A stretch of 64,000 bases of DNA from an uncultured Clostridiaceae bacterium. Lineage in GTDB: Bacteria; Bacillota; Clostridia; TANB77; CAG-465. Numbering within the stretch: position 1 is the first letter of the stretch; each line of letters starts with the position of its first letter. The notes beneath the pieces were generated by a model. It saw only the letters and a list, made by a program, of their open reading frames with translations. It was not told the origin of the DNA and did no database searches. Shown here piece by piece: positions 3,455-14,388 of this stretch. A program made the position numbers and the translations under genes. The stretch covers positions 1,817 to 65,816 of the forward strand of contig CAZZFS010000005.1 of the NCBI GenBank assembly GCA_964653805.1, in the 5' to 3' direction.

Positions 3455-3561
3455 ATATTAAGTTACCTCCAATTAATTATTATATCTATCTATTTTATAT
3501 GTAATATTATACACCTAATATTATATAATATGCAATGTAAAAATGATAAGAATACAAAAAA

Positions 3562-3603
3562 ATATAGAAAAAGAAAGCTAAATTTAACTTTCTTTTTCTA
3601 TAT
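3562..3603 (-). terminator. hairpin terminator of family-1 copy A
   Basis: atatagaaaaagaaag / ctttctttttctatat arms around an AAATTTAA-type loop, directly 3' of the ORF. Confidence 0.6.
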
Positions 3604-3615
3604 TTAAAATTCTTT

Positions 3616-3948
3616 TTAATTGAAAGAATATTGATCTTTTGAATGAAGTTTGAGATTTATATTTCCCTTTTCAATATCTTTTTTGAATTTTTCAAATAAT
3701 GCTTTTGTCATTTTTTCTTTTCCGTAATGATCTAAGATATCACTTCTCATATTGAATTGTTGAATTGCATTTCCCATTGCAAGTGTTACATTGATTTTGC
3801 AAGGTTTGCCTACAACAAAATATCCATTTCGTCTTAACCGGATATTATATCCTTTTTTTATGTAACTTTGGGCTTTTTTTTCAGTTCCCTGGAATTCAAT
3901 ATTGTCCGTTTTTTCGTAATTAATTGATTTAACAATTGTTTCTGTCAT
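3616..3948 (-). CDS. hypothetical 110-aa basic protein, family-1 copy A
   Basis: Shares KGY..R.RRNGYFV..KP, INVTL and a C-terminal YSF with the ORFs at 6709, 7230, 7770 and 11772. The leader CCTACAAATGGAGG lies just before the ATG. Confidence 0.8.
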   Translation of the reverse strand: MTETIVKSINYEKTDNIEFQGTEKKAQSYIKKGYNIRLRRNGYFVVGKPCKINVTLAMGNAIQQFNMRSDILDHYGKEKMTKALFEKFKKDIEKGNINLKLHSKDQYSFN

Positions 3949-3996
3949 GTTTTTCCCTCCATTTGTAGGTAAATTTATTTTTTTTGCAACTTGTAA

Positions 3997-4025
3997 AGTT
4001 TACCATAATTATATTGAATTGTCAA
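3997..4025 (-). promoter_or_regulatory. promoter of family-1 copy A (TTGACA-17-TAAACT)
   Basis: Minus strand reads TTGACAattcaatataattatggTAAACT. Confidence 0.5.
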
Positions 4026-4149
4026 GTAATTATTAAAATATTTATGAATAATCTATGATAAAGTCATTTATTAGCAAAAAAACATTAGCAAAAAATATTT
4101 ATTTACTTTCTATTATATCCTATATTATATAAAACGACTCATATTACTA

Positions 4150-4947
4150 TTATTGACTGTGTATATCTTTTCTTACAAAAGCAGTATATGATAATATCAA
4201 TAAAATTAATGATACTAAAATAGATACTACTAAAAATTTAATATCGTATGCGTTATTTTTTATAATGTCTTGATAATCAAAATATCCAAATGGATTTATA
4301 TATTTTAATTTATCTTCTTTTAATATATTTTGTAATAACTGTACTATAAAAAACGAAAATGCTGTTATTGTTGCAATACCACCAGGATTTTTTATTTTCT
4401 TTGCAAAATTAGCTATAAATATACCTATTGATGCAAATACCATTTCAACAAAAAATATTGAAAATATCATAAGTATATATGTATTAAGATTACTATCTTC
4501 TCCATATATTAAAAACATACAATACGCACTAATAAATAAAAATACGTTTATTATACTTAATACTACAAAATTAGCTAATAACTTCTCCACGAAAACACTT
4601 GTTCTTTTCTTTGGTTTAGTATATAAAAAGTCACTTGTTTTAGTTATTTTTTCTCTTCCAAATATATTAATACCAAAATATACATTCATTATACTTGCTG
4701 CTAGTAGTACATATGTTAAGCTAAATGCGAAAAATCCATTATACGTAAATATAGATGTTAAATCATCTATACCTATTATGTTTAAAGTTTGTGGTGGGTA
4801 TGTTTTAAGTATCGAAAACACTTGTTCTTTTGCTCCTGTATATATAGTAAACATAGAAGCAAAAAGACATACAATACATATTATACTTATAGACCATACA
4901 ATAATACCCTTTATATTAGTTTTTAATTCAAATTTAAATATATTCAT
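4150..4947 (-). CDS. ABC-2 type transporter permease
   Basis: 265-aa polytopic membrane protein. It starts 4 nt after the ATPase stop and has an AAAGGAGG RBS. Confidence 0.7.
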   Translation of the reverse strand: MNIFKFELKTNIKGIIVWSISIICIVCLFASMFTIYTGAKEQVFSILKTYPPQTLNIIGIDDLTSIFTYNGFFAFSLTYVLLAASIMNVYFGINIFGREKITKTSDFLYTKPKKRTSVFVEKLLANFVVLSIINVFLFISAYCMFLIYGEDSNLNTYILMIFSIFFVEMVFASIGIFIANFAKKIKNPGGIATITAFSFFIVQLLQNILKEDKLKYINPFGYFDYQDIIKNNAYDIKFLVVSILVSLILLILSYTAFVRKDIHSQ

Positions 4948-4951
4948 AAAG

Positions 4952-5836
4952 CTAGTCCTCCTTTTGATAGTAATGCATGAATATTTCTTCTAGATCAGGT
5001 TCTACTATTGAGATATCTTCTAAATTATATTTTGATATAGCATTAACTAGTTTATTTACTTCACCTCTATATACAAAGGTAACAGTACTTTCTTTTACCT
5101 CTATATTTATAGCATCATCAAACTTAAATTCATTAGCTTGTATATCACTTGAAAAATCAAGTGTTACTTTTTTAATTGCTTTTTTAATCATATCTTTTAT
5201 ATTTTCTACTTTTACTAAATTACCGTCTTTTATAATAGCTACCCTATCACATAATTTTTGAACTTCACTTAATATATGTGAAGAGAATAATATAGTAGCG
5301 CCATTTATATTTTCTTGTTTTATTATATTAAAGAATTTTTGTTGCATTAAAGGATCAAGTCCACCAGTAGGCTCATCTAAAATTATTAATTTTGGACTAT
5401 GTAATAATCCTTGTATAATTCCAACTTTCTTTTTATTACCATAAGATAAGTCTTCTATTTTTTTATTTAAATCTAGTTCAAATTCTTTTGCAAGTTCATA
5501 TATTCTTTTATCACAATTTTTATTATAAAAACTAGCAGAGTATTTTAACAATTCAATTACTTTCATATTATCATAATAAAAAACTTCACTTGGTAAATAA
5601 CCTACATTTTTTAAAATTTCTTCTTTATCTTTTATAATATCTAAACCAAATATTTTAGCATCTCCAGATGTTTTATATATAAGACCTAGTAATGTACGTA
5701 TAGTAGTTGATTTACCTGCTCCGTTTGGACCTATAAAACCAAATATTTCTCCTTCTTTTACTTCTAAATCTATATTTTGGATTCCTTTTGATTTACCATA
5801 AAATTTTGTTAATTTTTTTGTTTCAATAACGTTCAT
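4952..5836 (-). CDS. ABC transporter ATP-binding protein
   Basis: Walker A GPNGAGKST, signature LSYGNKKK, Walker B LIILDEPTGGLD, H-loop SSHIL. Confidence 0.9.
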   Translation of the reverse strand: MNVIETKKLTKFYGKSKGIQNIDLEVKEGEIFGFIGPNGAGKSTTIRTLLGLIYKTSGDAKIFGLDIIKDKEEILKNVGYLPSEVFYYDNMKVIELLKYSASFYNKNCDKRIYELAKEFELDLNKKIEDLSYGNKKKVGIIQGLLHSPKLIILDEPTGGLDPLMQQKFFNIIKQENINGATILFSSHILSEVQKLCDRVAIIKDGNLVKVENIKDMIKKAIKKVTLDFSSDIQANEFKFDDAINIEVKESTVTFVYRGEVNKLVNAISKYNLEDISIVEPDLEEIFMHYYQKED

Positions 5837-6037
5837 AAATATACCTCCATATACAATATATAAAATATCTTTAATTTATATACTTAATATTATACACCTA
5901 ATAATATAAAATTTGCAATATTTCAACAAAAAATAAAAATCACAAACACATAAATAAATATTTTTTTCAAACATTCAAAAAGCAGGTAAGTTATATATAA
6001 CTTCCTGCTTTTTGATTTTATTTATTTTCTTCTTTTT

Positions 6038-6521
6038 TCAAACGTTACTTTCAAGCGCTTCTGAAATATCAGAATAACCTGAGTTTTCAAGTTGTTTAAT
6101 TAACTCTTGGTAAACAATTTCTCCAAAGTTACTAATGTTCATCAATTCTTTTTTCGATGTTTGTTTTAATTGTCTAATCAAAAAAATACCTGTTTTAAAT
6201 AAACAATTATTTACTCTTGTTGACAAATTTAAACTTAAAACGCTATCAAAACCAGCATTTTGAAAAGCATTAGCTGTATCTATTCCATGACTTCGGTAAT
6301 ATCTATTATTTTTTAGAGTTTTTAATATTCTTTCTACTGAATCCTCTATTTCAGCTATTTCACGTATAATATCATTTGGAGAGAATTTTGTATAATCATT
6401 TGTTTTGTTTTAACAATTTTTCCAAACTCTCTCCTGTGAAATTAATTGTTAATATTTCCTTTCCATTTGAATCCAATTCCTCTTTCAAATACTTCAATAC
6501 TAATCCCAAGTCTAATTCCAT
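6038..6521 (-). pseudogene. RpoA alpha-CTD-like (helix-hairpin-helix) protein, reading frame broken by a +1 shift
   Basis: An ATG at 6519-6521 with a GGAG RBS gives MELDLGLVLKYLKEELDSNGKEILTINFTGESLEKLLKQNK*. The next frame continues TNDYTKFSPNDIIREIAEIEDS...LNLSTRVNNCLFKTGIFLIRQLKQTSKKELMNISNFGEIVYQELIKQL. Removing one A in the run at 6399-6409 fuses the two parts. Total length 484 nt, i.e. 3n+1. Confidence 0.6.
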
Positions 6522-6550
6522 TTTAATATCTCCTTTAAAATAAAAAATTT

Positions 6551-6620
6551 GTGTTATAATTATAAGACCACATAATTTATGTCTTTTTATAATTATAACA
6601 CTTCTCGCTGGTTATGTCAA
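6551..6620 (-). promoter_or_regulatory. TTGACA-17-TATAAT promoter embedded in a 15-bp perfect inverted repeat
   Basis: GTGTTATAATTATAA (6551-6565) and TTATAATTATAACAC (6587-6601) are exact reverse complements 21 bp apart. The -10 (6592-6597) lies inside the upstream arm and the -35 is at 6615-6620. Confidence 0.5.
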
Positions 6621-6664
6621 CCGATATGTGTTTGCATTAAAATTAAATCCACAAAGTAAATACA

Positions 6665-6696
6665 AAAACAGGAAGTTAAATTTAACTTCCTGTTTT
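6665..6696 (-). terminator. hairpin terminator of family-1 copy B
   Basis: aaaacaggaagtt-aaattt-aacttcctgtttt. Confidence 0.65.
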
Positions 6697-6708
6697 ATAA
6701 AACTCTTT

Positions 6709-7041
6709 TCATGCAAAAGAGTATGTTCCGCTTGAATCAAGACTGATTTTTATTTTACCAGCATTAACATCTTTTTCGAATTTTTTTACTAAATTCTGAT
6801 TTAATCGCCTTCTTTTGTAATGTTTTAAAACCTCTTCTTTCATATCGAATGTTTTTGTAACATCAGCACTTGAAAGAGTTACATTAACAATAGGCGGTTT
6901 TACTAAAACCCAATGCCCATCATGTTCTGAATGGACGTAGTAATCATCATTCAAGAATACCTGGATTTCTTTTCTCTTTCCTTGAAAAGTTTTTCTTTTA
7001 GAATTCCGATAATCAATAGCCAAAATACTTGTTTTTTCCAT
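6709..7041 (-). CDS. hypothetical 110-aa protein, family-1 copy B (most divergent)
   Basis: ORF 6709..7056. The ATG at 7041 (MEKTSILAIDY) follows a GGAGGA RBS, and the earlier GTG overlaps that RBS. Contains HDGHWVLVKP, VNVTLS and YSFA. Confidence 0.75.
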   Translation of the reverse strand: MEKTSILAIDYRNSKRKTFQGKRKEIQVFLNDDYYVHSEHDGHWVLVKPPIVNVTLSSADVTKTFDMKEEVLKHYKRRRLNQNLVKKFEKDVNAGKIKISLDSSGTYSFA

Positions 7042-7088
7042 GTTGTTATCCTCCACTTGTTGTGATAATAAATTTTTAATATTTTAAG

Positions 7089-7117
7089 ATTATACCATTA
7101 TTATGTCACTTTGTCAA
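7089..7117 (-). promoter_or_regulatory. promoter of family-1 copy B (TTGACA-17-TATAAT)
   Basis: Minus strand reads TTGACAaagtgacataataatggTATAAT. Confidence 0.6.
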
Positions 7118-7185
7118 TATTTTTGAATAATATTTAAAATATAAAATATTATTTCAGTTTAGTTAAAGAGGCTATATACATAAAG

Positions 7186-7218
7186 AAAAACAGAAAGTCA
7201 ATTTAACTTTCTGTTTTT
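7186..7218 (-). terminator. hairpin terminator of family-1 copy C
   Basis: aaaaacagaaagt-caattt-aactttctgttttt. Confidence 0.65.
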
Positions 7219-7229
7219 GTAGCTTACTA

Positions 7230-7568
7230 CTAGTTCTGGATAAAAGAGTAAGTATTATTTGGATTAAGAGTAATGTGTAATTTTCCAGATTTAATTTCTT
7301 CAATGAATCTACAAAACAATTTATCAGTAACTCTTTCTCTGTTGTAAAATTCAAGTACGCCTTCTCTCATGTCAATGATTTGTGTAACATTTTCTTTAGA
7401 AAGAGTTACGTTAATTTGAGATGGCTTTGCTAAAACCCAGTGTCCATTCCGTTCATTTTCAACTGAATAACCTAAATCTAGGTATTTTTGAATATCGGCT
7501 TCTGTACCGTAAGTTCTGACACATTCAGATTTTTTGTGTTTAACTGCTGTAACAATCGTTGTAGGCAT
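7230..7568 (-). CDS. hypothetical 112-aa protein, family-1 copy C
   Basis: LGYSVENERNGHWVLAKPSQINVTLS...DMREGVL...TYSF. GGAGGA RBS. Confidence 0.8.
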   Translation of the reverse strand: MPTTIVTAVKHKKSECVRTYGTEADIQKYLDLGYSVENERNGHWVLAKPSQINVTLSKENVTQIIDMREGVLEFYNRERVTDKLFCRFIEEIKSGKLHITLNPNNTYSFIQN

Positions 7569-7616
7569 TTGATTTTTCCTCCATTAGTAGGATTTATTTT
7601 TATTTTATTTTTTTAT

Positions 7617-7645
7617 ATTTTAACATTGTTATGTTATTTTGTCAA
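7617..7645 (-). promoter_or_regulatory. promoter of family-1 copy C (TTGACA-17-TAAAAT)
   Basis: Minus strand reads TTGACAaaataacataacaatgtTAAAAT. Confidence 0.55.
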
Positions 7646-7727
7646 TACAACTTATATATATTTTTTTATGTTTATTTCTCGATTAAACATATTATTTATC
7701 TTGGTTAAAGAGGTTATATACATAAAG

Positions 7728-7761
7728 AAAAACAGAAAGTCAAAATTTAACTTTCTGTTTT
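7728..7761 (-). terminator. hairpin terminator of family-1 copy D
   Basis: aaaaacagaaagt-caaaattt-aactttctgtttt. The flank GGTTAAAGAGGTTATATACATAAAG is shared with the region 3' of copy C. Confidence 0.65.
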
Positions 7762-7769
7762 GTGTATTT

Positions 7770-8120
7770 TTAAGCTCTTTTTAACAAAAGGCTATATTGT
7801 TCTTCGGATGTAGGGTCAAAAAGAATCTTTACTTTGCCAGCATTAACATCTTCTTTAAATCTTTGACATAATTTCTTGTTTACTCTTTGTCTAGTGTATA
7901 AGTCAAGAACATCTTCTCTCATATCAAAGACTCCTGTATGTTTCCCTTTAGAAAGAGTCACATTAACCTTTGATGGCTTGACTAAAACCCAATAGCCATT
8001 CCGGTGAATATGAACTGTATATCCTTTTTTCAAATACTTTTGCACTTCTGCTTCTGTACCTTGTAATTCGATACTGTCCGAATTTTCATAATCGATTGCT
8101 TTAACAATTGTTTTTAGCAT
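7770..8120 (-). CDS. hypothetical 116-aa protein, family-1 copy D
   Basis: KGYTVHIHRNGYWVLVKPSKVNVTLS...FDMREDVL...QYSL. Leader CCTACAAATGGAGG. Confidence 0.8.
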   Translation of the reverse strand: MLKTIVKAIDYENSDSIELQGTEAEVQKYLKKGYTVHIHRNGYWVLVKPSKVNVTLSKGKHTGVFDMREDVLDLYTRQRVNKKLCQRFKEDVNAGKVKILFDPTSEEQYSLLLKRA

Positions 8121-8165
8121 GTTGTTTCCTCCATTTGTAGGTTTTTTATATTTTTTTATTATTCC

Positions 8166-8194
8166 ATTCTAACATAGTTATGTCACTTTGTCAA
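8166..8194 (-). promoter_or_regulatory. promoter of family-1 copy D (TTGACA-17-TAGAAT)
   Basis: Minus strand reads TTGACAaagtgacataactatgtTAGAAT. Confidence 0.55.
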
Positions 8195-8244
8195 TATTTT
8201 ATTTGCTTTTTATATATTTTTTAAAACTTGGTACTTAATTTGCA

Positions 8245-8496
8245 TTATTTGTGGTGGTCAGTCATTTCTGTAAACATAATATGTTCTTCTAAAGTTTCAT
8301 CATCTAAATTAGAATTATCATCTTGATTCTTTTTAATATAGTCGTTATTCCCATTAACTTTATTGTTTTTACTATCAACAATACCTATTATAACTAATAT
8401 TAAAAATAAAGCTGGAAAAATAAACATATAAGGCATTCCACTAAAACCTAACATGATACAAAATATTAAAAATAAAATAAGAATTAAAATAGCCAT
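8245..8496 (-). CDS. small membrane protein with an acidic tail
   Basis: 83 aa with two hydrophobic helices followed by an N/D-rich tail. AGGAGA RBS. Confidence 0.5.
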   Translation of the reverse strand: MAILILILFLIFCIMLGFSGMPYMFIFPALFLILVIIGIVDSKNNKVNGNNDYIKKNQDDNSNLDDETLEEHIMFTEMTDHHK

Positions 8497-8586
8497 ATCT
8501 AATCATCTCCTAAATAAAATGTTTTTATTTGTTACTTATTTATTAATCATTTTTTATTATGAAAAATCAAAATAAATCAATTTAAT

Positions 8587-9048
8587 TTATTTTAAGTTGA
8601 ATTTACTATTTTCATAATTATATTCTATACTAGTACCTTCAACAACGTCTTCTATTTTATCAAGTATTAACCAATCATCCATATTAGATTGATGATCTAA
8701 TTTCATTGGATTAATTTTTTCTATTTTTTCAAATTCAATTAAGCATAAACATTTTTTATGCCATCTTTCTTTTTGTTTATTAATTAAAGCAAGTTTTAAA
8801 TTATTTTTTTCTATTATATCTAATATTTCATCATCAGATAATTTAACAAAATTTTGTACCTCTTTAACTATTGCTTTAGCAGTTATTAATCCTGTTCCTT
8901 TTTCAATAAAATACAACTCTTCATTACTAAATACTCTACTATGAGGTATTTTTCTTCCAGCAGCACCTCTTATTACCATAGTCTTACTTCCATTTAATAT
9001 TTTTTCTAAAACCTTTTCTTTATTATCACAATAAACTAAATGTACCAT
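8587..9048 (-). CDS. hypothetical protein, possibly ASCH/PUA-like
   Basis: 153 aa. LNGSKTMVIRGAAGRKIPHSRV...LYFIEKGTGLITAKAIVKEV resembles ASCH-type folds. Weak call. Confidence 0.4.
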   Translation of the reverse strand: MVHLVYCDNKEKVLEKILNGSKTMVIRGAAGRKIPHSRVFSNEELYFIEKGTGLITAKAIVKEVQNFVKLSDDEILDIIEKNNLKLALINKQKERWHKKCLCLIEFEKIEKINPMKLDHQSNMDDWLILDKIEDVVEGTSIEYNYENSKFNLK

Positions 9049-9075
9049 ATAATTTCACTCCTTTTTAAATAAGTT

Positions 9076-9468
9076 TTATTTATCACATTTTAGACATTTA
9101 TTTCTATGAACACAAATAAGTCCACCACATTTTGTACATTGCCATCTTATTTGCTCATTTTCTAAAAATTTATCCATTCCAAATTCTTTTATATATTCTA
9201 AATTATCTATCATACTCATATTATATTTAGTTCTATATCTTTTATCTAGTTGTTTTAATCTAGCACAGGGATATTTGTTACAATTATAACAATCAATAGG
9301 TGGATTAGTTTTTTTATTATCACAATTTTTTATAATACAATTTTTACAAGATTTAGGCATGTTAATGTCATTAGAATTACATCCCATACATCTATTTTTA
9401 TCCCTTTGATATGCTAAACATAAAGCACAATTCATTCCACAAGGTGCAATCATATTTGAATCTATCAT
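9076..9468 (-). CDS. DUF3795-like cysteine-rich protein
   Basis: MIDSNMIAPCGMNCALCLAYQRDKNRCMGC plus further CxxC pairs. The ATG at 9468 follows a GGAGGTGA RBS, and the track start at 9483 overlaps that RBS. Confidence 0.6.
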   Translation of the reverse strand: MIDSNMIAPCGMNCALCLAYQRDKNRCMGCNSNDINMPKSCKNCIIKNCDNKKTNPPIDCYNCNKYPCARLKQLDKRYRTKYNMSMIDNLEYIKEFGMDKFLENEQIRWQCTKCGGLICVHRNKCLKCDK

Positions 9469-9499
9469 ATACCTCACCTCCATTTATATACATACTAAT

Positions 9500-10249
9500 T
9501 TATATTCCAAGCATTTTCTTTAAATACCCTTCGTTTAATAAATGTAGTGTTTCAAACTTACCGTTATTAAAAACAGCCCAATTATTAAAAACACAAGGCA
9601 TATTTTTTGCTTTTTCTAAAGTATCTACTTTAATTAAATCTAACTCTATATTATTAGTTTTACAATAATTTTCTATTTGCTCTATACAGTTTGGAATATA
9701 TGGACATTGAAGTCCATAATAAATAGTGAGTTTTTTAGAATCTATACTCTGTTTCTTAGCATTATCTGTAAACTTAGGTTTAGTTCCATCAAAAGAAATT
9801 GCTAACAATTCATATTCATCACCAATTGTATCAACTACTTCAAAACCATATTTTAGCATAAATTTTTTATCTGATAAAAAAGGTGTTTTCTTTTTAGAAC
9901 TAATTATACATACTCCAGACTTTTTATCTTTTTTAGCATTTTCGATAGCATAATTTAATAAATCACTACCATATCCTTTACCTTTAAAACTACCAGATAC
10001 CCAAAGACAATAAATATATATATAATTATCTCCTATTACAGGAATCCAAGCATTTTCAATTGGTGCATATTCAATAAAAACTTTTCCTTTAGCATCTAAT
10101 TTTCTAAAAACATGACCCTCTTTAATCCTATTTTTAAGCCAATATTTTTTACATTCAACTCCTAATTGATGTTTTTTATCTGCAATAGCACAGCATAAAT
10201 GTTCATTATCTAAATTCTCAATTGTTAAATTAACAAAATTATCACTCAT
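9500..10249 (-). CDS. GNAT N-acetyltransferase with a YoaP-like C-terminal domain
   Basis: N-terminal LCCAIADKKH..., GNAT core CLWVSGSFKGKGYGSDLLNYAIENAKK, then a C-terminal domain of about 80 aa with CPYIPNC. Confidence 0.65.
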   Translation of the reverse strand: MSDNFVNLTIENLDNEHLCCAIADKKHQLGVECKKYWLKNRIKEGHVFRKLDAKGKVFIEYAPIENAWIPVIGDNYIYIYCLWVSGSFKGKGYGSDLLNYAIENAKKDKKSGVCIISSKKKTPFLSDKKFMLKYGFEVVDTIGDEYELLAISFDGTKPKFTDNAKKQSIDSKKLTIYYGLQCPYIPNCIEQIENYCKTNNIELDLIKVDTLEKAKNMPCVFNNWAVFNNGKFETLHLLNEGYLKKMLGI

Positions 10250-10285
10250 ATATATTTCCTCCTTTAAATTTTTATTTTTTTATAT

Positions 10286-10726
10286 TTACAATCTTTTTAA
10301 ATCTTTATATACATTAAAATTTAAAATTGCCATATCTTTCAAATAATTTTTTAATTTATTTATTGGTATATTTTCAATTAAATTAGTAATTTCTTCTTGA
10401 TTTTCTTTGGATGTTATATTTACTACTACAAGATCTTTTAAATAAAGTAAAGCAGCAACTTCATGTTTACAAGCACTCCCACTTTGAGCATATGGACAAG
10501 TACAATCAGTACATATAATTATACCATCTTCCTTATCATCAGACATATCAATATTAACAATATATTGATCACTACCATATACAACAGCAATATATTTATC
10601 ATCAAGTTTTACTAAATCTTTTACTAAATTTGAATTATAATATTCTATACCTCTTATTATTATATTATCATCAAAATAATAATTTATATACTCATCTATA
10701 TCCTTTAAAGTATATTCTTTAAACAT
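10286..10726 (-). CDS. SWIM zinc-finger protein
   Basis: CTDCTCPYAQSGSACKHEVAALLYL matches the CxCxnCxH SWIM signature. Confidence 0.65.
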   Translation of the reverse strand: MFKEYTLKDIDEYINYYFDDNIIIRGIEYYNSNLVKDLVKLDDKYIAVVYGSDQYIVNIDMSDDKEDGIIICTDCTCPYAQSGSACKHEVAALLYLKDLVVVNITSKENQEEITNLIENIPINKLKNYLKDMAILNFNVYKDLKRL

Positions 10727-10741
10727 GCTAAAAACCTCCTC

Positions 10742-11575
10742 CTATTTAATTACACTCCATTCATCTAAAGATTTACCATTTGAATCTTTTAATTCTTGCC
10801 ATGTATTTTGTCCACCATAAAACAAGAAAATACCAAGTTGATTTGGACTTTTAAATATAATATCTTCAGTTGTAATATTATCAACTATTTTATCTGCATA
10901 ATCTAGTCTAAACTTTTCTGCAAGTTGAGCTGAAAAATTAACACTACCATCTTTATTTAATTGTGGATCTTTAACTAATTTAGCTCCAGAAAGTAATACA
11001 AGTTCATCTTTACTTTTCCAGATTGCACAACCTTCTCCACCTCTTAATTTAGCAGTGAATTTTATATTACTAACTTCTTTACTCCATTTGTGTCTAGCTT
11101 TTAAATTAGGAGCTTTAGCATCTATTAATTTGGCTTTATTTTGCACTTTAAATCCATTTAATCCGAAACCTTGTAAAATTACCAATACTTTATCTTTATA
11201 CTCGTTTAAATTGATCTCTTGTAATTTTGAAAATTCAAACTCATTTATTTTTCCAATATGTTTTAACTCGACATTGTTTTGCAAAGCTTCTTTAAAAAAA
11301 ACATATTCTAAACAATCCACATCTAAATTATTAGGTACAGATATAGCAATTAATTTATCAAATTTGATTTTTTTAAATAAATCAGCATCTAATGTTTTAT
11401 CTATATGCACTAAATTAGTATCACAAAAAAATAAATATACATTATTATTATTTATTTCAGTAATATTATTTAAATCTATTTTACTTGTATTTAATATTTG
11501 TATAATATTTTGATTATCATCAAACCTAATAATTGTTTTAAAATCATTTATCATTACATCTAATCTAATTTCCAT
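10742..11575 (-). CDS. hypothetical protein with a DUF4357-like C-terminus
   Basis: The C-terminus FKSPNQLGIFLFYGGQNTWQELKDSNGKSLDEW resembles DUF4357. The ATG at 11575 is correctly spaced from an AAGGAG RBS. Confidence 0.45.
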   Translation of the reverse strand: MEIRLDVMINDFKTIIRFDDNQNIIQILNTSKIDLNNITEINNNNVYLFFCDTNLVHIDKTLDADLFKKIKFDKLIAISVPNNLDVDCLEYVFFKEALQNNVELKHIGKINEFEFSKLQEINLNEYKDKVLVILQGFGLNGFKVQNKAKLIDAKAPNLKARHKWSKEVSNIKFTAKLRGGEGCAIWKSKDELVLLSGAKLVKDPQLNKDGSVNFSAQLAEKFRLDYADKIVDNITTEDIIFKSPNQLGIFLFYGGQNTWQELKDSNGKSLDEWSVIK

Positions 11576-11720
11576 AACTACCATCTCCTTTTTGAGATAT
11601 ATAACTTACTTATATATCTATTATACTCAATTTTATTCTATATTTCAATTAAATGTAAAAGTTTTTGTTTTTAATTTACATATTTACTTTATTATAAAAG
11701 TTATTTCCTTATAATAAAGT

Positions 11721-11757
11721 AAAAAACATAAAGTTATAATTTAACTTTATGTTTTTT
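11721..11757 (-). terminator. hairpin terminator of family-1 copy E
   Basis: aaaaaacataaagtt-ataattt-aactttatgtttttt. Confidence 0.65.
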
Positions 11758-11771
11758 GGTTATACAAAATT

Positions 11772-12104
11772 TTAAACGAAAGAATAACTTTCAGGCGAAA
11801 TAAGAGTTAAGCATATTAATCCTGATTCAATATCTTGTTTAAATTTATTTAATAAATTTTGGTTCATCTTTTTTCTTCCATAATAATTCAAAATATCTTG
11901 TCTCATATTGAAAGTTGCAGTATCATCATTTTTTGAAAGTGTTACATTTATCTTGGCAGTTCTTGATAAAAGCCAATATCCATCGCGATTTACTCGAACT
12001 TCATATCCTTTATTTAAATATGGTTGAATTTTAGATTCTTTCCCTTGAATTTCTACGCTATCTGAATTTTTGTATTTGATAGCTACAACAATTGTTTTTG
12101 CCAT
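11772..12104 (-). CDS. hypothetical 110-aa protein, family-1 copy E
   Basis: The ATG at 12104 (MAKTIVVAIKY) follows a GGAGGG RBS. Contains KGYEVRVNRDGYWLL, INVTLS, FNMRQDIL and YSFV. Confidence 0.8.
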   Translation of the reverse strand: MAKTIVVAIKYKNSDSVEIQGKESKIQPYLNKGYEVRVNRDGYWLLSRTAKINVTLSKNDDTATFNMRQDILNYYGRKKMNQNLLNKFKQDIESGLICLTLISPESYSFV

Positions 12105-12159
12105 TTTAAATCCCTCCATTTGTAGGTTTTATTTTTATTTTATTTTTTAATACTTATTT

Positions 12160-12188
12160 ATTTTAACATAGTTATGTCAATTTGTCAA
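12160..12188 (-). promoter_or_regulatory. promoter of family-1 copy E (TTGACA-17-TAAAAT)
   Basis: Minus strand reads TTGACAaattgacataactatgtTAAAAT. Confidence 0.55.
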
Positions 12189-12368: not shown

Positions 12369-12617
12369 ATGGCTAGAAAAAGACGAGACAGTGAATTATT
12401 AAGTGATTATCAAGATTTTGACAAAAGAGGCGCACATAAGTCAACTGGAACTAATTACAACGAAGATGGTTATGATTTATCTGGTGACGATGTAGATGGA
12501 TTCAATTTGTTAACAGGTAAGCATCGTAGCACAGGCACAAAGTACGATCCAAACGGCTATGATATTAACGGTTTCAATAAATACGGATTCGATAGAGATG
12601 GAAACTGTAACTTCTAA
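12369..12617 (+). CDS. 82-aa G-[YF]-[DN]-x-x repeat protein (mini version of 47469..49580)
   Basis: ...STGTNYNEDGYDLSGDDVDGFNLLTGKHRSTGTKYDPNGYDINGFNKYGFDRDG. AAAGGAG RBS and a strong terminator follow. Confidence 0.7.
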   Translation: MARKRRDSELLSDYQDFDKRGAHKSTGTNYNEDGYDLSGDDVDGFNLLTGKHRSTGTKYDPNGYDINGFNKYGFDRDGNCNF

Positions 12618-12660: not shown

Positions 12661-12705
12661 AAAAATCACAACTACCGGCTAAGCTGGTAGTTGTGATTTT
12701 TATTT
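12661..12705 (+). terminator. rho-independent terminator
   Basis: aaaaatcacaactaccggct/aagctggtagttgtgattttt, a GC-containing stem of about 16 bp followed by a T-run. Confidence 0.75.
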
Positions 12706-12754: not shown

Positions 12755-14329
12755 TTAATTTTCTTGGAAATATAATATTTCATTACCATTATAGTATTTT
12801 GATATATATCCACTTGTTGAATCATTTAAGAAATCACCACTAAATATCTCTTGTGTAAAAACTCTAGAATATTTTTTATTATTTACATCTGTTATCTCTA
12901 TTTCAAATGTTATAGTAGAACGTACATCATCAGATGTAACACCTGATTTAACTAAAGCTTTATCACTTGCTATAACAGACCAACTTGATACATCTTGTGT
13001 TTTTACATCTACTACACCATAATAGAATTGTATAGCTTGTAATTTAGAAAATTCTTCAATACTATACTCAAAAGAATCACCATTAAACAAATGTTTTTTA
13101 GATGATGTATTTGTTGCATTTTCCATAATTATATCATAAAAATAAAATTGTGGTGTTCCCATTTTAGGTGATTTTGTAGCATTAGCATTTTTAATTTTTA
13201 TACTTTTTATATTATTATTTTGTTCTATATTTGAATTATTAATAGATATTAATATACTTGCAGAAGTATATGGTTTAATTTGTTTGTAATCAGACCCCTC
13301 AACGTATTCATAACCATTTAAAATATTGTAACTTTCAGCTGTTGCATAATATGGTGTTTTTTCATTTGATTTATCACTAGTATTATTTGAAGTATTTGAA
13401 TTCGTATTTGTGTTTTGTGTTTGATTACTATTACTACTATTATTGTTACTTGTATTTGTATTGCTGTTATCATTACTATTACTATTTTGCATTGTAAATG
13501 CACCTATAAAGAAAATAATTATAAAAATCAATATCCACATAATTATTTTTTTCAATATAGACATTTTTTGTATAAAATCTCTTTTTAAAATTAAAACTAC
13601 AAATATAACAATTGTAATAACCCAACCTATTATATTTGAATCTAATAGCAATAAATACAGCGCTGCTATTGCACTTGTTATAATGTACACTAAAGTACTA
13701 GTTTTTTTATTTGACTTATCATTATTGTTATTATTACTAGTTTTATTGTTATTGTTTATAACATTATTATTTTGAACTTTTGTAGCTTCTTTAATTGGTT
13801 GTTTTTCTTCATTTGTAGCAACACTAACATTAGCACTATTAGCAACAACAGTATTAGAAACTTTATTATCATTATTAATACTATTAGAAGGTATAATAGC
13901 TCCATATTTAGCTTTTTTAGGATTTAAAACAATTTTAAATTTCCAACCATTTTCTTTAGCAACTTCTTTAAATGTTTTAGTTATTTGACCAATATCTATT
14001 TCATATTCATATGCTTTACCATCTGGTGCATAACCAACACTTTTAACTTTTCTAAATAAAGTAGTACCACTTTGAAAACTACTTTCACTATCTACACCAA
14101 AACTAAAACCTTTACTTTCTTCTTTAGTATTTTCATAATAATAAAGAATCTTATTTGCATCATCAAATAACGCAAAACTTTTGTATGTAATCTTTTTTTC
14201 ACCCGTACTGAATTTAGCATCTAAAAACTCTTTTGATATTTCAATATCAGTTTCTTGTCCTACTTTAGGATAAATGCCTATTCCTTGAAGTTTGTTAATT
14301 ATTAATTGGATCATATTACTTTTTTCCAT
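12755..14329 (-). CDS. Asn-rich membrane protein of unknown function
   Basis: 524 aa from the ATG at 14329 (AAGGAG RBS). It has an N-terminal soluble domain, poly-N/S linkers, three hydrophobic helices (YIITSAIAALYLLLL..., WVITIVIFVVLIL, IMWILIFIIIFFIGAF) and a C-terminal domain of about 220 aa. Confidence 0.6.
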   Translation of the reverse strand: MEKSNMIQLIINKLQGIGIYPKVGQETDIEISKEFLDAKFSTGEKKITYKSFALFDDANKILYYYENTKEESKGFSFGVDSESSFQSGTTLFRKVKSVGYAPDGKAYEYEIDIGQITKTFKEVAKENGWKFKIVLNPKKAKYGAIIPSNSINNDNKVSNTVVANSANVSVATNEEKQPIKEATKVQNNNVINNNNKTSNNNNNDKSNKKTSTLVYIITSAIAALYLLLLDSNIIGWVITIVIFVVLILKRDFIQKMSILKKIIMWILIFIIIFFIGAFTMQNSNSNDNSNTNTSNNNSSNSNQTQNTNTNSNTSNNTSDKSNEKTPYYATAESYNILNGYEYVEGSDYKQIKPYTSASILISINNSNIEQNNNIKSIKIKNANATKSPKMGTPQFYFYDIIMENATNTSSKKHLFNGDSFEYSIEEFSKLQAIQFYYGVVDVKTQDVSSWSVIASDKALVKSGVTSDDVRSTITFEIEITDVNNKKYSRVFTQEIFSGDFLNDSTSGYISKYYNGNEILYFQEN

Positions 14330-14388
14330 AAAAACCAACTCCTTTTACATTAATTATACCACATTGTATTAAAATGTAAATAATTATA

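Follow-up and report, generated by a model that had tools for sequence, protein, structure and literature searches.

We analysed a 64,000-nucleotide (nt) stretch of an uncultured Clostridiaceae genome (contig CAZZFS010000005.1, positions 1,817 to 65,816; hereafter 'the window'), which has a G+C content of ~24% and carries most of its genes on the minus strand. Five minus-strand open reading frames (ORFs), listed at 3616-3948, 6709-7056, 7230-7568, 7770-8120 and 11772-12119 and numbered copies 1 to 5 below, encode a family of small proteins that forms the subject of this analysis. The five proteins align end to end with 32-50% identity and retrieve one another in copy-versus-copy tblastn searches at E-values of 1e-20 to 1e-35. 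All the sequence blocks that an initial annotation had listed as shared are present, bearing out its view of the five as paralogs. tblastn with each copy as query matched only the other four, and hence no sixth copy within the 64-kb window. Copy 1 lies, as annotated, between two ABC-2 permease genes, and the same placement is kept in a contig from a related strain (L030; L-numbers denote comparison loci or contigs bearing family genes or relatives, and P-numbers family proteins).

The initial annotation had described all five products as basic proteins of 110 amino acids (aa). For copies 2 and 5, the starts in the ORF list—GTG at 7056 and ATG at 12119—fall within the ribosome-binding site (..AAGTGGAGG.. 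and ..AAATGGAGG.., respectively), so the real starts are the internal ATGs at 7041 and 12104, five codons downstream, giving 110-aa proteins that line up flush with the other copies. With these two starts corrected, the lengths of the five proteins range from 110 to 116 aa. The basic character holds for four copies (isoelectric point, pI, 9.4-9.7) but not for copy 3 (pI 7.8).

Every copy is preceded by a promoter of the TTGACA-17-TAnAAT type with a TG extended -10 element, characteristic of sigma-A recognition, in agreement with the annotation. The two hexamers match at 11-12 of 12 positions in four copies and at 10 of 12 in copy 1 (TAAACT), and the 29-mer TTGACAANNTGACATAANNATGNTANAAT recurs at four copies with at most one mismatch, against zero occurrences expected. 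At the other end, an intrinsic terminator composed of a hairpin and a T-run follows each of the five genes. A terminator scan called those of copies 1 to 4 (eight sites in 10 kb versus 1.5 expected); the terminator of copy 5 was located by pattern and is not among the sites called by the scan. The core AAAGTTAAATT is present at four copies, with GAAGTTAAATT in its place at copy 2. Having a strong promoter and a terminator of its own, each copy constitutes an autonomous monocistronic cassette, as originally described, and from these signals we infer high, constitutive expression.

The third proposed component of the cassettes, a conserved leader, held up in part. Its motif CCTACAAATGGAGG is exact at three copies and carries one mismatch at a fourth (four matches versus 0.15 expected), whereas copy 2 has the variant CACAACAAGTGGAGG. 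Each leader ends in a GGAGG ribosome-binding site. The leaders are rich in A and show no structure, with folding energies of -1.5 to -3.8 kcal/mol and z-scores of -1.5 to +0.6 (not significant), and Rfam at gathering threshold gave zero matches in the whole window. For lack of Rfam matches and of a significant fold, a riboswitch, T-box or attenuator leader was rejected. What had been called a conserved leader therefore amounts to the ribosome-binding site with its surroundings, and no separate element.

Less could be said for the idea that the family had spread as whole cassettes. The TTGACAANNTGACATAANNATGNTANAAT pattern also lies upstream of unrelated genes in ten diverse metagenome-assembled genomes (MAGs) of Clostridia (GTDB loci L020-L029); several of these genes read, from translations alone, as rbfA, xseB, a DegV-family gene, a desulfoferrodoxin-like gene and a tRNA. 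The 29-mer thus appears to be a generic strong clostridial promoter with a semi-conserved spacer, and since it precedes unrelated Clostridia genes, an ACATA-N2-TATGT inverted repeat in the spacer was discarded as a family-specific operator. Between paralogs, identity amounts to 69-93% for promoters, 59-94% for terminators, 64-71% for coding DNA and ~35-77% for other flanks. Intergenic flanks had been described as shared among the three tandem copies; a longer downstream flank is common only to copies 3 and 4 (46/60 nt), the other flanks being near background. Homologues in two Clostridia-type contigs, at ~50% protein identity (L011 and L014), show the same promoter style, and L014 the same leader style as well, which points to long-standing selection for strong expression more than to recent cassette copying.

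Two further interpretations of the terminators were considered and rejected. As attC-like sites or a repeated element they are unconvincing: they are classical hairpins followed by a T-run, and the sole additional AAAGTTAAATT in the window (17240) lacks a hairpin. Integron cassettes, defined by a promoterless ORF and a 57-141-bp attC with an integron integrase nearby, differ from the units seen here. The family genes have their own promoters, the hairpins span 32-46 nt before the T-run, and no integrase was found among the neighbours scanned; the GTTAAAT of the terminator loop matches GTTRRRY by composition only.

Orthologues of each copy are present in metagenomic contigs of related strains, at 65-95% identity. 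Gene-wide ratios of nonsynonymous to synonymous substitution rates (dN/dS), computed between strain orthologues by the Nei-Gojobori method, lie between 0.10 and 0.45 for the family: 0.22-0.38 for copy 1 (88-95% identity in L030 and L034), 0.10-0.24 for copy 4 and 0.34 for copy 5 (91% identity in L013). Copy 2, at 65-69% identity to its strain orthologues, is the fastest-evolving lineage. For comparison, most neighbour genes give 0.12-0.27, and the fast ones, encoding a 280-aa and an 83-aa protein, 0.39-0.69. The family values indicate real genes under purifying selection, mildly relaxed at about twice the level of most neighbours. With no value above 1, the gross diversification implied by the earlier term 'diversifying family' is unsupported. 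Synonymous divergence between the paralogs is saturated (dS 0.9-1.4), indicating old duplications. In L013, the orthologue of copy 4 is directly followed by a gene resembling copy 2, with no counterpart of copy 3 there. In the nearest GTDB genomes (Clostridia/Clostridiaceae MAGs whose ABC-F protein is 77-80% identical), no family gene lies near the syntenic ABC-F gene.

The annotation had recognised no domain in these proteins, and database searches concur. For the five copies, Pfam and NCBIfam gave no match above cut-off, PADLOC (PADLOC-DB v2) none at E<=1 and PDB sequence-profile searches nothing, while the best PHROGs match (E 0.0037) was inconsistent among copies. When 128 family members were searched against Pfam, no Pfam family was matched by more than one of them; one member, with TyrRS C-terminal and S4 matches, is probably a chimeric gene call. 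Homologues are few. A word-indexed search of 5.8 billion clusters yielded 20 proteins. When 1.84 billion representatives were searched exhaustively with a hidden Markov model (HMM), 244 matched (114 at E<=1e-10), nearly all of them stand-alone proteins of ~110 aa. GTDB matches fall only within Clostridia and Paenibacillaceae, with one copy per locus, and all members placed in named genomes belong to Bacillota. Phage collections are nearly devoid of the family, with no tblastn match in 50,697 phage genomes and one match in IMG/VR. A literature look-up for the C. difficile homologue WP_021424763 found no paper. Domain fusions were rejected as clues to function, the longer members being a tandem double (P0119), over-called N-termini (P0060, P0136) or uninformative C-terminal extensions (P0154, P0095, P0057). 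The tandem double, a natural fusion of two family domains in a 254-aa protein of the representative library, hints that the domain may act as a dimer.

Conservation within the family centres on Y11, S14, Q20, G21, G33, Y34, N41, G42, W44, L46, K48, P49, K68 and Y75, with further conserved positions at [KR]77, [RK]79, F88, D91 and G95. The loop Y-G-[KR]-x-[RK]-[ILV]-[ST], together with K48, K68 and K96, is kept even in the most distant members. Variability is highest in the beta5-beta6 hairpin (57-64) and the C-terminal hairpin. The median pI is 9.1, and 73% of members lie above 8.5.

AlphaFold2 models of copy 4 reached a pLDDT of 91.4 from 22 sequences and of 94.6, with a pTM of 0.81, from 128 sequences; the modelled topology is b1 b2 a1 b3 b4 b5 b6 a2 a3 b7 b8. 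Taking a Foldseek E-value <=0.001, or a template-modelling (TM) score >0.5 over most of the chain, as a fold match, searches with two models found none in the PDB (best E 0.24-0.30) or in BFVD (best E 0.085), and TM scores stayed below 0.3. The swapped-hairpin domain of AbrB, SpoVT and MazE is built as a bb-a-bb unit, and the N-terminal half of the family model follows the same order (b1 b2 a1 b3 b4). However, no PF04014 match was obtained at E<=1, Foldseek returned no match to AbrB, MraZ or MazE, and the chain contains no internal repeat (N versus C halves, hhalign E 0.14); an internal duplication or an AbrB-like swapped-hairpin origin was rejected on these grounds. The family and its predicted fold are undescribed, the gene architecture itself being ordinary. 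The region is best explained as a lineage-specific five-fold expansion of undescribed cytoplasmic alpha/beta proteins of ~110 aa, so far recorded only in Bacillota.

Inspection of family genes in other bacteria, where the gene is single-copy, revealed a recurrent association with defence genes and mobile elements. A family gene adjoins a type I restriction-modification (RM) system, GmrSD, a Dam-like methylase and NERD in L014; a methylase, HerA/NurA, MazG and an SLFN-like helicase in L017; and a type IIG RM system, a transposase and a GmrSD-like protein in L001, and a type I RM system lies near another in L043. L018 places one at a prophage end, after a holin, an amidase and two serine integrases. 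On the C. difficile plasmid pCd5_2, the family gene, annotated as hypothetical, sits between a resolvase and a Fic gene. In a module resembling an integrative and conjugative element (ICE) of Clostridium sp. and Fimivivens, it lies two genes after a topoisomerase and a RadC-YodL-DUF4316 polyvalent protein (polyvalent proteins are described in PMC5512222). A serine recombinase occurs within ~6 kb of the family gene at five of 20 loci. Given this rare and patchy distribution and these locations, the earlier view that the genes are not housekeeping is supported: the family is accessory, if not universally so.

A pair composed of a 327-aa protein and a small family gene is shared, at 75-80% identity, by Clostridium sp., Candidatus Fimivivens and an unbinned metagenome contig, and in L042 it follows TopB and the RadC-YodL-DUF4316 polyvalent protein. 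These findings suggest recent transfer of the pair on an ICE-like element.

At many loci, the family gene lies 80-200 nt downstream of, and co-oriented with, a gene for a larger unannotated protein. Such large neighbours make up at least five unrelated classes without detectable mutual homology, and a universal conserved partner was accordingly rejected; class A alone recurs, in four of five lineages. Class A proteins are acidic (412-420 aa, pI ~5.2; alignment A7) and have no Pfam, NCBIfam, PADLOC, PHROG or PDB match. In four lineages (L018, L050, L053 and L059), a family gene lies 88-117 nt downstream of the class A gene; across these lineages the large protein retains 40-49% identity and the small one ~20%. 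The protein downstream of these class A homologues measures 116-125 aa and scores 19-22 bits against the family HMM, which matched none of the control neighbours; the RISKQLLE-type motif is clear in one of them (L053). Class A pairs adjoin McrBC and methylases, a type IIG RM system or prophage integrases. Downstream of a 36%-identical class A homologue (L061), the small gene is missing.

Class B (L001, L002) was rejected as a partner, being only positionally linked: its 45-53%-identical homologues (L055-L058) precede other genes, encoding a PemK toxin or a sigma-70-region-4-like protein. In L055 (6001-7884), the class B protein (454 aa) is encoded after an EcoRII-C/Vsr/C5-methylase RM system, and the slot held by the family gene in L001 and L002 is taken by a PemK/MazF-type toxin gene that stands alone, no antitoxin being obvious. 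The pairing of a large protein with a family member is thus frequent but non-obligate. The window contains no homologue of classes A to D, and its five copies are therefore solo.

Added to the descriptive account of an undescribed accessory family with five strongly signalled copies, a non-enzymatic binder is the reading toward which the evidence leans modestly. The conserved Gly, aromatic and Lys/Arg positions lack a constellation of catalytic type, and the protein would act by stoichiometric binding, not by catalysis. More tentatively, nucleic acid may be named as the most likely ligand, because the solo copies have a strongly basic character and the basic positions persist even in the most distant members. 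Differences in specificity between the paralogs would be set by the two variable hairpins, beta5-beta6 and C-terminal. The family resembles HU/IHF, Rok, Lsr2 and H-NS, along with their plasmid-borne paralogues, in size, basic charge, predicted high constitutive expression, the existence of paralogues and the occurrence of copies on mobile elements. It shows no similarity in sequence or fold to any of them, however, and DNA binding by the family is putative.

Three observations weigh against an accessory nucleic-acid binder. The members paired with class A are near-neutral (pI 6.4-7.8), a charge more in keeping with protein binding than with nucleic-acid binding. Some contexts look core-like, with the gene for the ribosome hibernation factor HPF adjoining the family gene in four related loci and tsaE in one. 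Finally, no mobile-element genes are visible around the five window copies, which are not obviously mobile cargo.

The main rival to a nucleic-acid binder, which we consider rather unlikely, casts the family as orphan neutralising partners of the immunity, antitoxin or 'anti-addiction' kind. The small protein would ancestrally bind and restrain a larger upstream partner in a two-gene module of defence islands and mobile elements, and the five window copies, diverged and without partners, would be a stock of neutralisers against such proteins brought in by invading elements. A check for toxin-antitoxin organisation gave a divided picture, with class A adjacent in four of five diverged lineages, no recognisable domain in class A and no partner for the window copies. 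That orphan state counts in favour of the neutraliser reading, as do the class A pairs in four diverged lineages, their location beside McrBC and methylases, type IIG RM or prophage integrases, the concentration of sequence variation in two hairpins, and the PemK toxin holding the same slot after another large protein in L055. Likewise, orphan immunity or antitoxin arrays (acquired interbacterial defence clusters and anti-addiction antitoxins) consist of diverged, partner-less small proteins that elsewhere follow a larger protein in conflict islands. Yet the large neighbours are mutually non-homologous, which is unusual for cognate immunity, and they carry no recognisable toxin domain or secretion marker. 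The pairing is not obligate, as neither class A in L061 nor class B in L055-L058 is followed by a family member. The family is also basic, whereas typical type II antitoxins are acidic.

A more elaborate version, which we regard as improbable, makes the small protein a subunit of an undescribed two-gene conflict module with the 412-420-aa acidic, helical protein; in Clostridia this module borders McrBC, type IIG or type I RM systems or sits at prophage ends. On this view, the five diverged, partner-less window copies would supply antidotes or decoys against such modules, as an intracellular analogue of orphan immunity arrays with a fold unseen in the PDB.

Still less probable are anti-defence proteins of the anti-restriction type, which mobile elements would express early and strongly to inhibit host restriction or other immunity and which would later have been domesticated and multiplied in the chromosome. 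Family genes carried by a plasmid, by the end of a prophage and by an ICE-like module near the RadC-YodL-DUF4316 polyvalent protein (PMC5512222) are consistent with such an origin, as are the small size of the genes and their autonomous strong promoters. Many other occurrences, however, are in host defence islands or ordinary chromosomal contexts, matches in phage collections are almost lacking, and an anti-defence role hardly accounts for five chromosomal copies kept under purifying selection. The DNA-mimic anti-restriction proteins ArdA and Ocr, moreover, are strongly acidic, unlike this basic family.

In their organisation, the family genes recall phage morons. Morons, a concept from lambdoid phage genomics, are autonomous promoter-ORF-terminator units inserted between other genes. 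Each family copy is likewise a self-contained transcription unit, one of them between two genes of an ABC-2 operon, and one homologue lies at a prophage end beside integrases (L018). In contrast to morons, the window copies sit in ordinary chromosomal DNA without prophage genes, and the family is nearly absent from phage collections.

An ordinary lineage-specific physiological protein, acting in stress, at the ribosome or in sporulation and found near mobile and defence genes merely because both occupy variable genome regions, is similarly improbable: the restriction to Bacillota (the named family-bearing taxa commonly form endospores), the purifying selection and the position directly after the HPF gene in four related loci or beside tsaE in another would suit it, but the distribution is very patchy (244 of 1.84 billion representatives), the nearest GTDB relatives lack the gene near the syntenic ABC-F gene, the promoters are of the sigma-A and not of the forespore or mother-cell type, and the HPF adjacency is limited to one lineage.

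If the family proteins were nucleic-acid binders or neutralisers of a partner protein, they would bring a new fold to the set of small proteins that clostridial mobile elements and defence islands employ; accessory functions of this kind are poorly charted in Clostridia. As a pair that recurs next to restriction systems, the 412-420-aa protein and the small protein are a concrete candidate for a defence or addiction module of a new kind, and the five strongly signalled copies offer natural variants for specificity tests. Should they prove to be ordinary lineage-specific proteins, their main value would be as a clean new domain family for Pfam/DUF curation.

Table 1 Positions of the five family cassettes in the window, of a neighbouring gene and of paired loci in other contigs
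Feature	Position	Strand	Remarks
Copy 1, coding sequence	3616..3948	-	110 aa, pI 9.7; between two ABC-2 permease genes
Copy 1, promoter	3997..4025	-	TTGACA-17-TAAACT, TG extended -10; most diverged of the five
Copy 1, leader end	3956..3969	-	CCTACAAATGGAGG; GGAGG ribosome-binding site 7 nt before ATG
Copy 1, terminator	3560..3605	-	hairpin and T-run (scan)
Copy 2, coding sequence	6709..7041	-	110 aa from ATG at 7041, pI 9.6; fastest-evolving copy
Copy 2, promoter	7089..7117	-	TTGACA-17-TATAAT, 12/12 positions, TG extended -10
Copy 2, leader end	7050..7064	-	CACAACAAGTGGAGG, motif variant; includes spurious GTG at 7056
Copy 2, terminator	6665..6696	-	hairpin (scan)
Copy 3, coding sequence	7230..7568	-	112 aa, pI 7.8
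Copy 3, promoter	7617..7645	-	TTGACA-17-TAAAAT, TG extended -10
Copy 3, leader end	7578..7591	-	CCTACTAATGGAGG
Copy 3, terminator	7186..7218	-	hairpin; with ~30 nt downstream, near-identical to that of copy 4
Copy 4, coding sequence	7770..8120	-	116 aa, pI 9.4; query for structure models
Copy 4, promoter	8166..8194	-	TTGACA-17-TAGAAT, TG extended -10
Copy 4, leader end	8128..8141	-	CCTACAAATGGAGG
Copy 4, terminator	7729..7761	-	hairpin (scan and pattern)
Copy 5, coding sequence	11772..12104	-	110 aa from ATG at 12104, pI 9.5
Copy 5, promoter	12160..12188	-	TTGACA-17-TAAAAT, TG extended -10
Copy 5, leader end	12113..12126	-	CCTACAAATGGAGG; includes spurious ATG at 12119
Copy 5, terminator	11722..11752	-	hairpin ACATAAAGTTAAATTATAACTTTATGTTTTT (pattern)
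280-aa neighbour of copy 5, not a family member	10742..11584	-	PADLOC candidate PDC-S14, E 1.2e-11
Class A loci	L018 6642-7904; L050 5001-6239; L053 5001-6239; L059 302-1540		
327-aa protein and family gene	L004 8917-10327; L006 8918-10327; L042 4914-6321		

Among the neighbouring genes of the window, the one for the 280-aa protein adjoining copy 5 matches PDC-S14, which is only a candidate phage-defence system; the family proteins themselves have no PADLOC match, and gene order varies between loci. The 280-aa protein has no Pfam match and evolves fast, with a dN/dS of 0.69 relative to L013. In L013 and L014, homologues of this protein also adjoin family genes; the one in L014 follows the Dam-like methylase in the island that also holds the type I RM system and GmrSD. 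Just upstream of the tandem array, 8245-8496 (minus strand) encodes an 83-aa predicted membrane protein with a dN/dS of 0.39-0.69 and no family match.

Between copies 1 and 2, in the minus-strand region 6000-6620, a promoter of perfect consensus sequence (TTGACA-17-TATAAT with TG; 6620-6592) has no more than a 41-codon ORF under its control. A 62-aa ORF downstream (6038-6226) gives a match (E 2e-10) to PF03118, the C-terminal domain of RNA polymerase alpha, and the region as a whole resembles a gene that has decayed or become fragmented. A 366-aa gene occupying the same slot in L030 was considered as its intact form and rejected for lack of similarity.

Beyond copy 5, the plus strand carries an 82-aa ORF (12369-12617) without a Pfam match, in which the internal repeat H[KR]STGT[NK]Y..[DN]GYD occurs twice; a strong terminator with a 19-bp stem follows at 12661-12701. 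On the minus strand, 12755-14338 encodes a 527-aa membrane protein with a long Asn/Ser-rich low-complexity linker, which corresponds to two genes (383 and 135 aa) in the related strain contig L013 (4088-5723).

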